From IMG/VR virus record IMGVR_UViG_2541047679_000003: 35,960 nucleotides of DNA; one strand, given 5' to 3'. Of this stretch, positions 25,077 through 34,291 are shown one piece after another. The DNA comes from a virus (lineage: Duplodnaviria > Heunggongvirae > Uroviricota > Caudoviricetes). Numbering within the stretch: the stretch's first letter is position 1; every line of letters starts with the position of its first letter. Below the pieces are notes generated by a model that worked only from the letters and a program-made list of their open reading frames with translations, had not been told where the DNA came from and did no database searches. Made by a program: the position numbers and the translations under genes.

Positions 25077-25433
25077 TCAGCCTGCGATTTTTCCTGGTTT
25101 TGGCTGAGTATAGAATCGCCCAATCTCAAGAAATGAGCGTTGTTGGTCTGGTGTCATGTCGTCAAAAGTATCTATTAGTTTTTGTTTTTCTGGGGAAATT
25201 TGATTCTGGTTTCTAGTCATACCATCTGTGCTCATTCCAGTGAGCAACCAATTTACATCAACATTAAACTCTTGATGCATCTTTAACAGAAACTCCCCTC
25301 CAGGCATCGCCTTTCCATTTTCAATCTGACTGATACCACCATTAGAAATACCTAAACGAGCTGCAAATTCTCTCTGGTTCAACCCTGCTTTCTTCCTCAC
25401 AGAAATAACGCGCTCTCCTATATCTTTGCTCAT
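25077..25433 (-). CDS. prophage repressor, HTH XRE family
   Basis: N-terminal helix-turn-helix (...LNQREFAARLGISNGGISQIENGK...), divergent from the early operon. Confidence 0.8.
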   Translation of the reverse strand: MSKDIGERVISVRKKAGLNQREFAARLGISNGGISQIENGKAMPGGEFLLKMHQEFNVDVNWLLTGMSTDGMTRNQNQISPEKQKLIDTFDDMTPDQQRSFLEIGRFYTQPKPGKIAG

Positions 25434-25450
25434 AAAAGTGAATCTCTATC

Positions 25451-25479
25451 TTGATATGCTCATAATTATGAGCAATAAT
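25451..25479 (+). promoter_or_regulatory. candidate early promoter (Pe-like)
   Basis: TTGATA, 17-bp spacer, AATAAT about 45 nt upstream of the ner-like ATG. Confidence 0.4.
25457..25474. promoter_or_regulatory. operator: perfect 18-bp palindrome TGCTCATAATTATGAGCA
   Basis: Read directly; lies in the repressor/early-operon divergent region and fills the spacer of a candidate early promoter. Confidence 0.55.
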
Positions 25480-25526
25480 CTAACACATATAAGGCAAACA
25501 TCATTGCATCAACAAAGGAGACAACG

Positions 25527-25715
25527 ATGACTGCAGAACAAGTCAAAGCTCTCTTCCGCCAGCGCGGGATCACTTTCACCCGCTGGGCAGAAGAAAACGG
25601 CTACAACCGCAATGAGGTATACCGCGTTCTCAACGGGCAGACCAAAGCCCGTTACGGTAAATCCCATGAAATCGCCGTGAAGTTGGGACTGAAATCAACA
25701 GCTCAGGCGGCCTAA
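25527..25715 (+). CDS. Ner-like small DNA-binding regulator
   Basis: 62-aa ORF with AAAGGAG SD, first gene of the early operon; residue pattern resembles Ner/Nlp-type proteins. Confidence 0.6.
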   Translation: MTAEQVKALFRQRGITFTRWAEENGYNRNEVYRVLNGQTKARYGKSHEIAVKLGLKSTAQAA

Positions 25716-25761
25716 ATATTTTGAGTCTTTGTAAAAGGTTATCACATATCGCAAAAGAGGT

Positions 25762-26076
25762 ATGCAGATGAGTAAGACGAATGTTTCAAGCTCCGGCAGT
25801 CGCATCCTCCGGGTACTCAAAGCGCTGCGCGGTCATGCCCTGAACGGTATTTCTAACGGTGAACTGGCGACAGCACTGCACGAGTCACCGGCAAACATCA
25901 ACCGGGCACTCAACACCCTCATTGAAGAAGGGCTGGCTCTGAAACTGGAGAACGGACGTTTTGCACCGGGCATCCAGTTACTGCAGATCGCCATGGCCCA
26001 CAGTAACGAGATGGCACGTGCACAGGATCGTATTAACGAAATTAACCAACGTGTCATTTCAGGTAGTCGTTTGTAA
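25762..26076 (+). CDS. winged-helix DNA-binding protein
   Basis: ...LRVLKALRGHALNGISNGELATALHESPANINRALNTLIEEGLA... HTH-like; the start may be the second ATG at 25768. Confidence 0.5.
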   Translation: MQMSKTNVSSSGSRILRVLKALRGHALNGISNGELATALHESPANINRALNTLIEEGLALKLENGRFAPGIQLLQIAMAHSNEMARAQDRINEINQRVISGSRL

Positions 26077-26086
26077 GGAGTAATCA

Positions 26087-27007
26087 ATGGGACGTACCAA
26101 ATCACCGATTAACACTGAACTGAACGCCGATGTACCGCTGTCGGATGATCTCAACGTCAGCCTGAATGCCATGACACAGCATCGCATGGAGATCATGCAG
26201 CAGTTTGGTGATGGACTGCCTTATGAACGTGAACGCATCGTTCACGAAGCACGTTTTTATATGGCGCAGAGTGCTGAATCTATGTTGGAAGCGGGTAAGC
26301 GGCTGATCATCTTAAAAGAAAATGAACCGCATGGTGATTTCACAAATATTCTGGAAAACGACCTCGGATTAGCACCACAGGTAGCTCGTCGCATGATGCA
26401 GGCCAGCGTGAAATTTCTCGGCAATGGAGATGAACAGCCAAAACGCTCAGCGCTGAGCGTTTTGGGAAAAACCAAGTTATATGAACTGATGGTTCTGGAT
26501 GACGAAGAACTCGACGCATTAGCTGATGGTGGAACCGTCGCCGGTGCAACGCTTGATGATATTGATCGCATGACCAGCCGCGAACTGAAGGCCGCCCTGC
26601 GTGAAGCGCGCGAAACCAACGCAGCTCAGCAACAGGTGCTTGCCGGAAAGGACGAAAAAATCAACGAACTGGCCACAAAACTGGAGAAGAAATCGCGCCT
26701 GCAACCTCCGCCGCCAGACGAAGAACTGAAAAAATTGCGGGCGGAAGTGACGGCATTAGCGGTTGAGGCCGAATCGGCTATCGCCGTCCGGCTGTCCAGT
26801 GTTTTTGAGACCCTGTGTGAATACTGCACCAAAAACATGATCGATACCCCCAGAGATTTCATGGCCGGTCTGGTCTGCCAGATTGAACGCAGTGTTCATG
26901 CATTACGTGAGACGTTTGACCTTGAGGCCGCTCCATCGGGTAACGATGCCCCCGCCTGGCTGACCGAACCGGAACCTGAAATCAACCGACCGGAGGATAT
27001 GCAGTAA
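26087..27007 (+). CDS. hypothetical early protein (possibly DUF3102-like)
   Basis: 306-aa ORF with AGGAG SD, acidic coiled-coil middle region; family assignment from memory only. Confidence 0.55.
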   Translation: MGRTKSPINTELNADVPLSDDLNVSLNAMTQHRMEIMQQFGDGLPYERERIVHEARFYMAQSAESMLEAGKRLIILKENEPHGDFTNILENDLGLAPQVARRMMQASVKFLGNGDEQPKRSALSVLGKTKLYELMVLDDEELDALADGGTVAGATLDDIDRMTSRELKAALREARETNAAQQQVLAGKDEKINELATKLEKKSRLQPPPPDEELKKLRAEVTALAVEAESAIAVRLSSVFETLCEYCTKNMIDTPRDFMAGLVCQIERSVHALRETFDLEAAPSGNDAPAWLTEPEPEINRPEDMQ

Positions 27008-32893: not shown

Positions 32894-33120
32894 TTACGCT
32901 ATCAGGTAAAAGCCGGAAATTAAAAGCCTGCCGAATATCTGCCAGATACCTTTTTGCCCGCGCCTTTTTTAAGAACGTCAGGCCGGGGATCACAATTGGT
33001 GTTATTGCCGGACGCGAACAGGTTGAAAAATACATGTCAGGTGCATGGTGGAATAACGACCCTGTCATTGCTGCCCGTAATATTCATATCGAATGGGGAG
33101 GTATTCAGAATGACTACTGA
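32890..33120 (+). CDS. hypothetical protein
   Basis: 76-aa ORF, ATGA overlap with the upstream gene. Confidence 0.35.
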   Translation: MITLSGKSRKLKACRISARYLFARAFFKNVRPGITIGVIAGREQVEKYMSGAWWNNDPVIAARNIHIEWGGIQNDY

Positions 33121-33316
33121 AACCATTGTCTGTTTTCTTTTCTGGTATATGTACGCAGGATCATGCAGCGCAAGACTTCATCGTTCCCTGGGCTATGGCA
33201 GGCACTACGACACCGCGCATTACATCCTGTACATGACCGCCGTCATGTTGTTCTGGCCAGTCACCCTGCCAGCTGCAACCGACATTGTTGCCGACAGACT
33301 GAAAAAAAGGAGATGA
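33110..33316 (+). CDS. small membrane protein
   Basis: ATG at 33110 preceded by GGGGAGG; hydrophobic 68-aa product. Confidence 0.4.
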   Translation: MTTETIVCFLFWYMYAGSCSARLHRSLGYGRHYDTAHYILYMTAVMLFWPVTLPAATDIVADRLKKRR

Positions 33317-33317
33317 T

Positions 33318-33767
33318 ATGCAGAAAAAACGCCTGATACAGCTTATCCATATTGCCCGTAATGAACTGGGTATGGATGAAGACACCTACCGCCAGATGTT
33401 ACAGGGGCTGACCGGTAAAGCCTCAACCAAAGGAATGGATACCACACAACTAAACTGCGTGCTGGAATCCATGAAAAAGAAAGGCTTTCGCGTTAAACCA
33501 GCCAGAAAAGCCAGCTCCGGTTTACCGCTTGATAACCATCCGCAGTCCAGGAAAATTCGTGCGCTATGGCTTGAAATGGCTGCTGCCGGCATTGTTCGTG
33601 ACCGTTCAGAAAATGCATTAGCGAGGTGGATCAAGCGGGAAACGGGCATCAGCGCCCTGCGCTGGCTCAGTACTGAACAGGCAAGCAGTGTTATTGAGAA
33701 ACTGAAGAAGTGGCAGCGCAGAGCTGCGGGAGTCAAACATGAGCGACCTGAATCAGTTTCGAAGTAA
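33318..33767 (+). CDS. GemA-like protein (Mu gp16 family)
   Basis: 149-aa ORF with N-terminus ...LIQLIHIARNELGMDEDTYRQML..., immediately upstream of mor; AAGGAG SD. Confidence 0.6.
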   Translation: MQKKRLIQLIHIARNELGMDEDTYRQMLQGLTGKASTKGMDTTQLNCVLESMKKKGFRVKPARKASSGLPLDNHPQSRKIRALWLEMAAAGIVRDRSENALARWIKRETGISALRWLSTEQASSVIEKLKKWQRRAAGVKHERPESVSK

Positions 33768-34128
33768 GGGGCCGGAACTCCTGGTGGAACTGGCACAGCA
33801 TACCTCTGAGACCGTTCGCGAGATTATTGATATTGAGCCCGAAGTTGCCGACCAGATTGGTCAGGCCGTCGCGAACCGAATGATGCAGGTCTGGGGCGGG
33901 CAAAACGTTTATTTCCCGATGGGCATGGTATGGAAGGTCAGTCAGCGCGACCGGGAAATCTTCAGGGAGTTTAACGGACGCAACCACCACGAACTGGCCC
34001 GCAAATTTGGTGTTTCGCTTCAGTGGGTCTACAGCGTGGTTAAGCGGGTAAGAAAAGAAGAACTGGATCGGATGCAGGGCAAGCTATTTGCTGATGAACC
34101 CGATGCAGATACGGAGAAAAAAGAGTAA
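33739..34128 (+). CDS. mor: Mor/C-family transcription activator
   Basis: 129-aa ORF, the same length as Mu Mor, with a C-terminal HTH-like ...HHELARKFGVSLQWVYSVVKRVRK...; last gene before the prophage end. Confidence 0.75.
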   Translation: MSDLNQFRSKGPELLVELAQHTSETVREIIDIEPEVADQIGQAVANRMMQVWGGQNVYFPMGMVWKVSQRDREIFREFNGRNHHELARKFGVSLQWVYSVVKRVRKEELDRMQGKLFADEPDADTEKKE

Positions 34129-34219
34129 TATCTGCAATCAGGCTGGCGCGAGTTCTGTTTTTTTTTCGGGCCGGTCTGATTTTCACATACTGTAAGGTTA
34201 TTGCATATTCCTCCTAGTC

Positions 34220-34273
34220 TCTTCCCATTTTGACCCAGTTCTTCCCATAAATATCTCACTTATTCCCTGTCAT
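34220..34273. repeat. terminal direct repeats near the prophage end (candidate transposase-binding sites)
   Basis: cttcccat at 34221 and 34241 and attccctgtcat at 34262, spaced 20-21 bp, within 70 bp of the junction. Confidence 0.45.
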
Positions 34274-34291
34274 TTATCTCAAGTCTAATCA

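Follow-up and report, generated by a model that had tools for sequence, protein, structure and literature searches.

A widespread Escherichia coli prophage on the BcepMu/B3 gene plan, with a single terminal mor gene and candidate Mor-dependent late promoters

The stretch of DNA analyzed here, IMG/VR virus record IMGVR_UViG_2541047679_000003 (35,960 nucleotides, called the window below), holds a transposable prophage together with adjoining host DNA of E. coli. Its early genes all lie on the plus strand and read toward position 34291, starting next to a divergent CI-type repressor gene and ending with mor, and the lysis, head and tail genes lie beyond the repressor on the minus strand, where the tail-fiber gene runs off the window at position 1 (Table 1). 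The junction of phage and host falls exactly at 34291/34292, where ...GTCTAATCA is followed by TATTGG..., and the DNA from 34292 onward is the tcdA-mltA intergenic region, found in all 5,426 complete E. coli genomes. An earlier note on this DNA had described an early and immunity module that runs toward the prophage end with mor as its terminal gene, inverted relative to Mu; the list of open reading frames (ORFs), the Pfam assignments and the junction at 34291 bear this out. The note had also set the late genes on the other side of the repressor, transcribed in the opposite direction. The opposite strand stands; in addition, a 2.3-kb plus-strand module and a terminator lie between the late genes and the repressor, a detail absent from the note. 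We conclude with high confidence that the window holds a transposable myovirus prophage of BcepMu type (Bcepmuvirus) that lacks only its last 2.75 kb. The prophage sits between tcdA and mltA and is built on the standard BcepMu/B3 plan, and its layout reflects neither a local rearrangement nor an artefact.

The closed (long-read) chromosome of MINF_1A, an ST131 strain of E. coli, carries a prophage of 37,045 bp. Window positions 1-34291 match its positions 2755-37045 with 100% identity, as a single collinear block of 34,291 bp. Since the window holds the mor-side end only, the other prophage end was taken from MINF_1A. This prophage starts TGATGCGCC and finishes TCTAATCA, with TG...CA ends, and it splits mgsA with a 6-bp target duplication, GCTGGT. 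The RefSeq annotation of mgsA in this genome (36494-36949) has its start inside the phage end; the true gene is split, and its first 50 bp lie at the prophage's other end. At least 80% of positions 22000-35960 was found in one place in 426 of the 5,426 complete genomes (about 8%), at varied sites, and 22000-34291 is unbroken in these 426; none of the complete genomes carries the phage at tcdA-mltA. In four other genomes the mor-side end abuts mgsA, ylbE, a DUF892 gene or ecpC, and in the window it abuts tcdA-mltA; because five different host flanks adjoin mor, the whole mosaic moves as one unit in which mor is always the last gene. Furthermore, Escherichia phage PhiKM (PQ738613), filed by NCBI under Bcepmuvirus, is 100% identical to the window, and in its record too the mor-side end adjoins unrelated host DNA. 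That record is labelled partial and lacks the invertible fiber region. At its positions 20247-20573, the mor-side end TGATTAGAC is joined to unrelated DNA of about 330 bp that carries the annotation Fe2+ ABC transporter permease; this is consistent with host DNA packaged at the end of a transposable phage or with a collapsed assembly.

The mor-side tip lies 163 bp beyond mor. This end contains two GAGATAWWT repeats, ~12-20 and ~34-43 bp from the tip, which are putative transposase-binding sites, and the repeat layout is homologous to that of the BcepMu left end (TGAAGAGAGGTGAGATATTTCC...GCGCGATATTTCC). The likeness is end-specific, each end pairing with its BcepMu counterpart: read inward, the mor-side sequence TGATTAGACTTGAGATAAATG...GTGAGATATTT corresponds to TGAAGAGAGGTGAGATATTTC...GCGCGATATTT of BcepMu, and the tail-side sequence TGATGCGCCGCGCGATAAATG...GTGCGATAAAT to TGAAGCGCGGCGCGATATTTC...GCGCGATAAAT. 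The 2,754 bp that the window lacks code for the C-terminal part of the tail fiber, a fiber-assembly protein, inverted alternative fiber cassettes and a Gin-like recombinase. Positions 1-2764 of the MINF_1A prophage (L004:4990-8501, L002) form an invertible tail-fiber region, in which a 217-bp repeat occurs three times (715-931, 1154-1371 and 2548-2764; 87-96% identity, inverted). Window position 1 is the edge of the last repeat copy, and the sequence probably stops there because this is the edge of an inverted repeat of the invertible segment. A BcepMu-like prophage whose invertible region measures 2,610 bp has been described in E. coli (PMC11610265), and BcepMu has been reported to be without an invertible segment (PMC2628397).

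The relationship to known phages was established by a gene-by-gene tblastn comparison of 50 window genes with BcepMu, B3 and Mu. BcepMu has homologues of 36 of the 50, with 31-76% identity and in one collinear reversed order. Within the head and tail genes (gp28-gp51), identity reaches 58% for the portal, 62% for F, 63% for TerL, 76% for the sheath, 67% for the tube and 46-63% for gpU/X/D/V/W/J/I. At the left end of the BcepMu record (NC_005882) stands gp01 (Mor/C, minus strand), with gp02 (GemA), gp08 (ATPase), gp09 (transposase), gp10, gp12 and gp16 (helix-turn-helix, HTH) behind it. The plus strand carries the repressor gp17, accessory genes, holin, SLT endolysin, Rz/Rz1, terminase, a Mu-type head and a P2-type tail, gp39-gp52 being annotated as homologues of P2 FI/FII/T/U/D/V/W/J/I/H. 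Like the window, BcepMu has a terminal Mor, a single Mor/C gene, a divergent CI-type repressor, an accessory slot and homologous end repeats. The transposase and the ATPase are 68% and 59% identical to BcepMu gp09 and gp08 (over 581 and 404 aa, respectively). The two elements differ in their accessory genes (here a 242-aa ORF, a 71-aa ORF and Dam, on the opposite strand; in BcepMu gp18-20 and the acyltransferase gp53) and in the Mu-type Gam, which is present here and absent from BcepMu. They also differ in the invertible tail-fiber segment with its Gin-like recombinase, which belongs to the E. coli element and not to BcepMu (PMC2628397). Megablast of 22000-35960 gave no BcepMu match, the DNA identity between the two being too low for this method, and protein identity to BcepMu is mostly 45-68%.

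The element has these features of the BcepMu-like phages: a BcepMu-type transposase and ATPase, an early operon directed toward the end with Mor terminal, and a Mu-type head with a P2-type tail. It also has TG...CA ends with BcepMu-like repeats, a target duplication and many insertion sites, the window itself contributing the mor-side end only. Besides PhiKM, Bcepmuvirus includes Klebsiella phage KP12 and Burkholderia phage phiE255, and BcepMu relatives are known in Salmonella, Photorhabdus and Chromobacterium (PMC3417384).

B3 (NC_006548, Beetrevirus) shares the plan at the early side. Its ORF1 Mor (124-486, minus strand) adjoins the left end, its repressor ORF18 is on the plus strand, it has a single Mor, and it matches the gene order of the window in the early, lysis and head modules. 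Identities are 56% for the transposase (ORF12; 56-57% to B3-like Pseudomonas phages), 55% for the ATPase (ORF11), 48% for the DUF3102 protein and 71% for the Ner-position HTH. In contrast, B3 has a long flexible siphovirus tail, with a Dam/Com cluster inside the tail region; no window tail gene matches B3, and the window, which has sheath and tube genes, lacks the flexible non-contractile tail of B3/D3112 type that marks Beetrevirus. Relative to Mu, the B3-like organization has been stated to have its early operon inverted (PMC5977238), and the likeness to B3 that the earlier note had drawn was well founded.

Mu (NC_000929) is, like the window element, a transposable temperate myovirus with TG...CA ends, random insertion and a gin-type invertible fiber segment, and it has homologues of Gam, GemA, Mor, TerL, the portal, F and G (29-62% identity). 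However, all Mu genes except c read one way, whereas the early operon of the window is inverted. Mu has two activators, Mor and C, with C-type late promoters, its own tail genes, and a target duplication of 5 bp rather than the 6 bp seen here. The transposase and the ATPase have no tblastn match in Mu at E <= 1e-3 and no homology to MuA/MuB. The synteny comparison places the window in line with BcepMu and with the B3 early, lysis and head modules and not with the Muvirus order of c, then ner-A-B...mor-C-lys-head-tail; there is one Mor/C gene, not two.

The BcepMu and B3 records and the cited literature had therefore already described the arrangement, the tail of P2 type and the presence in an enterobacterial host. 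The novelty that the earlier note implied for an inverted early region with a P2-type tail in Escherichia is therefore lost: this combination defines the BcepMu group, and PhiKM is identical. With its layout already published and its exact sequence already public, the element is an ordinary, common E. coli prophage.

Table 1. Features of the window. Gene identities come from Pfam, and unassigned ORFs were compared with PHROG families; a point in the strand column is as given for features without a strand.
Feature	Position	Strand	Evidence and remarks
Late genes	824..22552	-	RefSeq annotation of the identical prophage; collinear with BcepMu gp21-gp51, 31-76% identity
Lysis and head genes		-	Holin, SLT endolysin, spanin; TerS, TerL, Mu-type portal, F, G, protease, capsid
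Tail genes		-	P2-type sheath, tube, tape measure, U, X, D, V, W, J, I
P_W, candidate promoter	2843..2886	-	TTTAA-ACGCCT-TTAAT-N22-AATACT; in 54-bp gap before gpW (2836)
P_E, candidate promoter	9194..9237	-	CTTAA-TCTCCT-TTAAT-N22-CATACT; upstream of tail-assembly gene (9166)
P_I, candidate promoter	15111..15154	-	TCTAA-AGCAGA-TTAAA-N22-CAAACT; upstream of protease/scaffold gene (15080); hairpin at ~15203-15246 precedes
P_lys, candidate promoter	22578..22621	-	CTTAA-CGCGCT-TTAAA-N22-GATGCT; upstream of holin (22552)
Accessory module between lysis genes and repressor	22683..24960	+	242-aa ORF, 71-aa ORF, Dam methylase
Antisense 134-aa ORF in accessory module	23387-23791
Dam methylase	24196-24960	+	Pfam MethyltransfD12, 8.7e-29; 64% identical to B3 ORF48
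Bidirectional hairpin terminator (predicted) between repressor and convergent dam	24967..24991	.	11-bp stem, 6 GC pairs, T-tail on minus strand
CI-type repressor gene, divergent from early operon	25077..25433	-	Pfam HTH_3, 4.6e-15; Phage_CI_repr, 1.8e-05
Predicted early promoter Pe	25451..25479	+	TTGATA-17-AATAAT; promoter scan, 10/12 matches
Start of early operon	25527..27324	+	Ner-position HTH, HTH regulator, DUF3102 protein, 105-aa protein
Ner-position small HTH	25527-25715	+	Pfam scores weak, below cut-off; 71% identity to B3 ORF17
HTH regulator	25762/25768-26076	+	Pfam
DUF3102 protein	26087-27007	+	Pfam
rve-type DDE transposase	27340-29109	+	Pfam rve
AAA_22/ExeA-type ATPase	29081/29120-30286	+	Pfam AAA_22
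Semi-essential early genes	30289..33316	+	Gam, DUF2786/DUF7168 protein, small proteins (PHROG families of unknown function)
Mu Gam	30586-31116	+	Pfam, 9.9e-41; 62% to Mu Gam
DUF2786/DUF7168 protein	32174/32210-32893	+	Pfam DUF7168, 1.1e-25
gemA homologue	33318..33767	+	Pfam GemA, 8.3e-41; 44% identical to BcepMu gp02
mor, only Mor/C-family gene, last before end	33739..34128	+	Pfam Mor PF08765, 1.3e-43
Predicted intrinsic terminator of early operon	34136..34181	+	~110 bp inside phage end; followed by UUUU
Mor-side transposon end	34248..34291	.	Ends ...TAATCA-3'; read inward TGATTAGACTTGAGATAAATG...GTGAGATATTTATGG

The Pfam match of the window Mor protein covers residues 9-116 and the full 107-position profile, a Mor domain with a C-terminal HTH. 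The protein is 54% identical to BcepMu gp01, 30% to Mu Mor (E 1e-14) and 37% to Mu C (E 2e-14), and is thus about equally far from the two Mu activators. A hidden Markov model (HMM) of the Mor/C family was built from Mu Mor, Mu C, BcepMu gp01, B3 ORF1 and the window protein, and was run against all six-frame segments of at least 30 aa in the window, the MINF_1A prophage, Mu, BcepMu and B3. Strong matches numbered two in Mu (Mor and C) and one each in the window, the MINF_1A prophage, BcepMu and B3. No second Mor/C gene was found by this search in the window or in the complete 37,045-bp prophage, where the next best match had E = 0.5. Nor is a C-like gene hidden in the missing left part, because fiber genes and the invertase fill it. 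The earlier note had held that no separate C-like activator follows mor and had left the other prophage end to be inspected; with that end in hand from MINF_1A, the missing 2.75 kb add no second Mor/C gene, and the statement is upheld for the whole element.

Four candidate Mor-dependent promoters precede late operons on the minus strand, and their boxes share the layout yTAA-N6-TTAAW-N22-nAnnCT, in which the half-sites are of 5 bp and the 6-mer between them is mostly G/C-rich. The pattern TTAAWATC-N19-nAnnCTG has four matches in the window, all on the late strand and all in the four late intergenic gaps, and none in 300 simulated sequences. A first motif guess, TTAAAATC-N11-TGYATTT, gave one match where 1.02 were expected, which is not significant, and TTAAWATC-N19 was used in its place. 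In the 36.7 kb of Mu, the relaxed pattern TAA-N6-TTAAW-N22-nAnnnT matches once, at 9175, directly after mor (AGTAA-AGCCGG-TTAAT-N22-TATCCT). The Mor site of Mu Pm has been described as a 16-bp element centered at -43.5, made of two 5-bp inverted repeats with a G/C-rich hexamer spacer, in a promoter with a -10 and no -35 hexamer (PMC4390567). Our numbering of this site agrees with the published -57G and -54A. The four late boxes of the window phage thus share their layout with Mu Pm; the C-dependent late promoters of Mu look unlike them.

The boxes are kept at orthologous positions in relatives of the element, in which the 22-nt spacers between box and -10 have diverged. These relatives (Pseudocitrobacter, two Symbiopectobacterium genomes and Salmonella diarizonae; protease 49-74% identical) come from a contig scan with the protease protein that gave 7 loci, a sample sufficient for positional conservation and not for covariation of Mor and box. 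The P_lys box also precedes the holin gene in the Pseudocitrobacter, Symbiopectobacterium and S. diarizonae prophages and in BcepMu, P_I is kept in the relatives and in BcepMu (CGTAA-AGCCGA-TTAAA), and P_E is kept at the orthologous place in all four relatives (L007-L010). BcepMu has TTTTAGCCGGCTTTAATATC before gp49, its gpW homologue, and so carries Pm-like boxes before the holin gene, the protease gene and gpW. This positional conservation, together with the single match at Mu Pm, gives the boxes independent support. In BcepMu, a box at 18813-18855 precedes gp32, and its predicted -10 runs into the ATGATG at which this gene is annotated to start; the annotated start may lie too far upstream. 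The box before the holin gene is nearly palindromic, and opposite-strand pattern matches occur in the Pseudocitrobacter and S. diarizonae relatives (L007:2553, L009:2626); in the window the reverse half-site is TTAAG, which fails the strict pattern. This box might be bidirectional and drive the 242-aa ORF, the 71-aa ORF and Dam as a late function, comparable to Mu mom and to Com-Dam of B3.

The simplest reading of these data is that a single Mor would act directly on four Pm-type late promoters in a two-tier cascade, and the four boxes fit the earlier suggestion that the only Mor/C homologue drives the late promoters itself. On balance, though with limited confidence, we favor extending this to BcepMu-type phages in general: Mor would fire four Pm-type late promoters, the C tier of Mu would be a lineage-specific addition, and the holin box might fire both strands and make the Dam module late, like Mu mom.

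Several points weigh against these conclusions. The -10 part of the pattern was read off the same four sites that it scores, so that the statistic is partly circular, and P_W, with its -10 element 6 nt from the annotated gpW ATG, is the least certain of the four. The Mor site of Mu was placed from a text description and two numbered bases (-57G and -54A). With the relaxed pattern no such boxes were found in B3, so that the promoter model may be limited to the BcepMu branch. The assignments of repressor to operator and of Mor to promoters are read from sequence, and the window is without its other end, so that the full structure depends on identical copies in other genomes. No account of these promoter boxes was found in the literature searched, and the search did not reach the 2004 papers in which BcepMu and B3 are reportedly described (Summer et al., J Mol Biol 340:49, and Braid et al., respectively).

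A late activator of another protein family may also lie among the small early ORFs. The late genes would then be turned on by a second, non-Mor/C activator, for example the HTH protein at 25768-26076 or the product of a small early ORF, and Mor would act only at an intermediate promoter, as it does in Mu. About 10 early ORFs have no known function, which leaves room for such a protein. However, no Pm-like box precedes any early-strand gene; all four stand directly before late operons, and they are kept at those places in the relatives. We consider a second activator unlikely, while granting it some weight.

The layout itself could be imagined as a recent inversion, private to this E. coli lineage, of a Mu-collinear ancestor, but only the contrast with Mu itself speaks for this. 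The same order is present in elements from Burkholderia, Pseudomonas, Pseudocitrobacter, Symbiopectobacterium and Salmonella, and the mor-side end is specifically homologous to the mor-side end of BcepMu. Since these ends are homologous, the linkage of end and mor is ancestral to the group, and a recent inversion is very improbable. The combination of a P2-type tail with a Mu-type head and Mu-type early genes might suggest two adjacent elements, a Mu-like early and transposition remnant beside a separate P2-like prophage. This is refuted, and deserves next to no credence: the whole 37,045 bp lies between a single pair of related inverted ends and is flanked by a 6-bp duplication, the entire unit is found together at different sites, the annotation of the identical prophage includes no P2 integrase, cos site or replication genes, and BcepMu virions package the same mosaic (PMC3417384). 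A contig misjoined near 22.6-25.5 kb, with parts of two elements back to back, had been raised as a possibility, and strand polarity does switch at 22.6 kb and again at 25.0-25.5 kb, with GC content down to 0.46-0.48, but the collinear identity over 34,291 bp with a closed long-read genome, the contiguity of 22000-34291 in 426 complete genomes and the same polarity switches in BcepMu and B3 refute it and leave it a negligible probability.

In the early region, the position and orientation of the repressor gene match those of BcepMu gp17 and B3 ORF18, and the start of the early operon is collinear by tblastn with BcepMu gp16/gp12/gp10 and B3 ORF17/14/13. Its first gene can be called ner-like by position and by its identity to B3 ORF17. 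Pe is the top sigma-70-like promoter of 22300-26200, and its spacer contains a perfect 18-bp palindrome, TGCTCATAATTATGAGCA (25457-25474), which is unique in the window (0.03 expected) and is likely the repressor operator. An extra half-site, TGCTCATAA, at 25427-25435 overlaps the repressor start codon (ATGAGCA, minus strand), which could point to autoregulation or be due to chance. Where the operon finishes, the predicted hairpin after mor folds with -24.8 kcal/mol (z = -5.0; none of 200 shuffles as stable), and it would halt early transcription before the end repeats and host DNA.

We propose the following course of events. In the lysogen, the early operon would be kept off by the CI-type repressor, probably bound to the 18-bp palindrome in Pe. 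Upon induction, Pe would drive expression of the Ner-position regulator, the Tn552-like DDE transposase, the AAA ATPase, Gam, GemA and lastly Mor, and early transcription would probably terminate at the hairpin close to the end. The transposase would act on both ends (TGAT...ATCA, with two GATAWWT repeats each) to give 6-bp target duplications; the chemistry assumed here is that of the family, and the ends and the duplication are observed. Mor would then activate the four opposite-strand late promoters, before the holin gene, the protease/scaffold gene, the tail-assembly gene and gpW. Such a cascade would have two tiers (early, through Mor, to late), compared with three in Mu (early, Mor, C, late), as sequence and conservation suggest.

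The accessory module occupies the slot that in BcepMu holds the unrelated accessory genes gp18-20, and it has no BcepMu homologues. A search for a defense or toxin function in 22683-24960 gave methyltransferase models only with PADLOC and Pfam, and families of unknown function with PHROGs. The hairpin that separates the repressor from the convergent dam folds with -18.5 kcal/mol (z = -4.7). Another hairpin, GGGGCUGUA...CCUUUAUAAAGG...UACAGCCUC (15203-15246, minus strand), lies in the gap between the G-like and protease genes and folds with -21 kcal/mol (z = -2.7). Its core TTTATAAAGGCTTTAC is kept in BcepMu and in the Pseudocitrobacter and Symbiopectobacterium relatives, and it is probably the terminator of the lysis-to-G operon. 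This hairpin sits at the place of the strong gyrase site of Mu, but it folds like a terminator and is taken here for one rather than for a gyrase site. Two late genes contain tandem duplications, the tape-measure gene with units of ~261 bp (6323-6615 and 6584-6875, 92% identity) and the tail-fiber gene with units of ~168 bp (177-425 and 345-593, 85% identity).

The inverted layout is the norm for a large and widespread lineage of transposable phages, and those who annotate such prophages should take BcepMu/B3 rather than Mu as their reference map. The conserved Pm-like boxes are only a modest addition to this picture, and they suggest a simple model in which one Mor-type activator would run the whole late programme.

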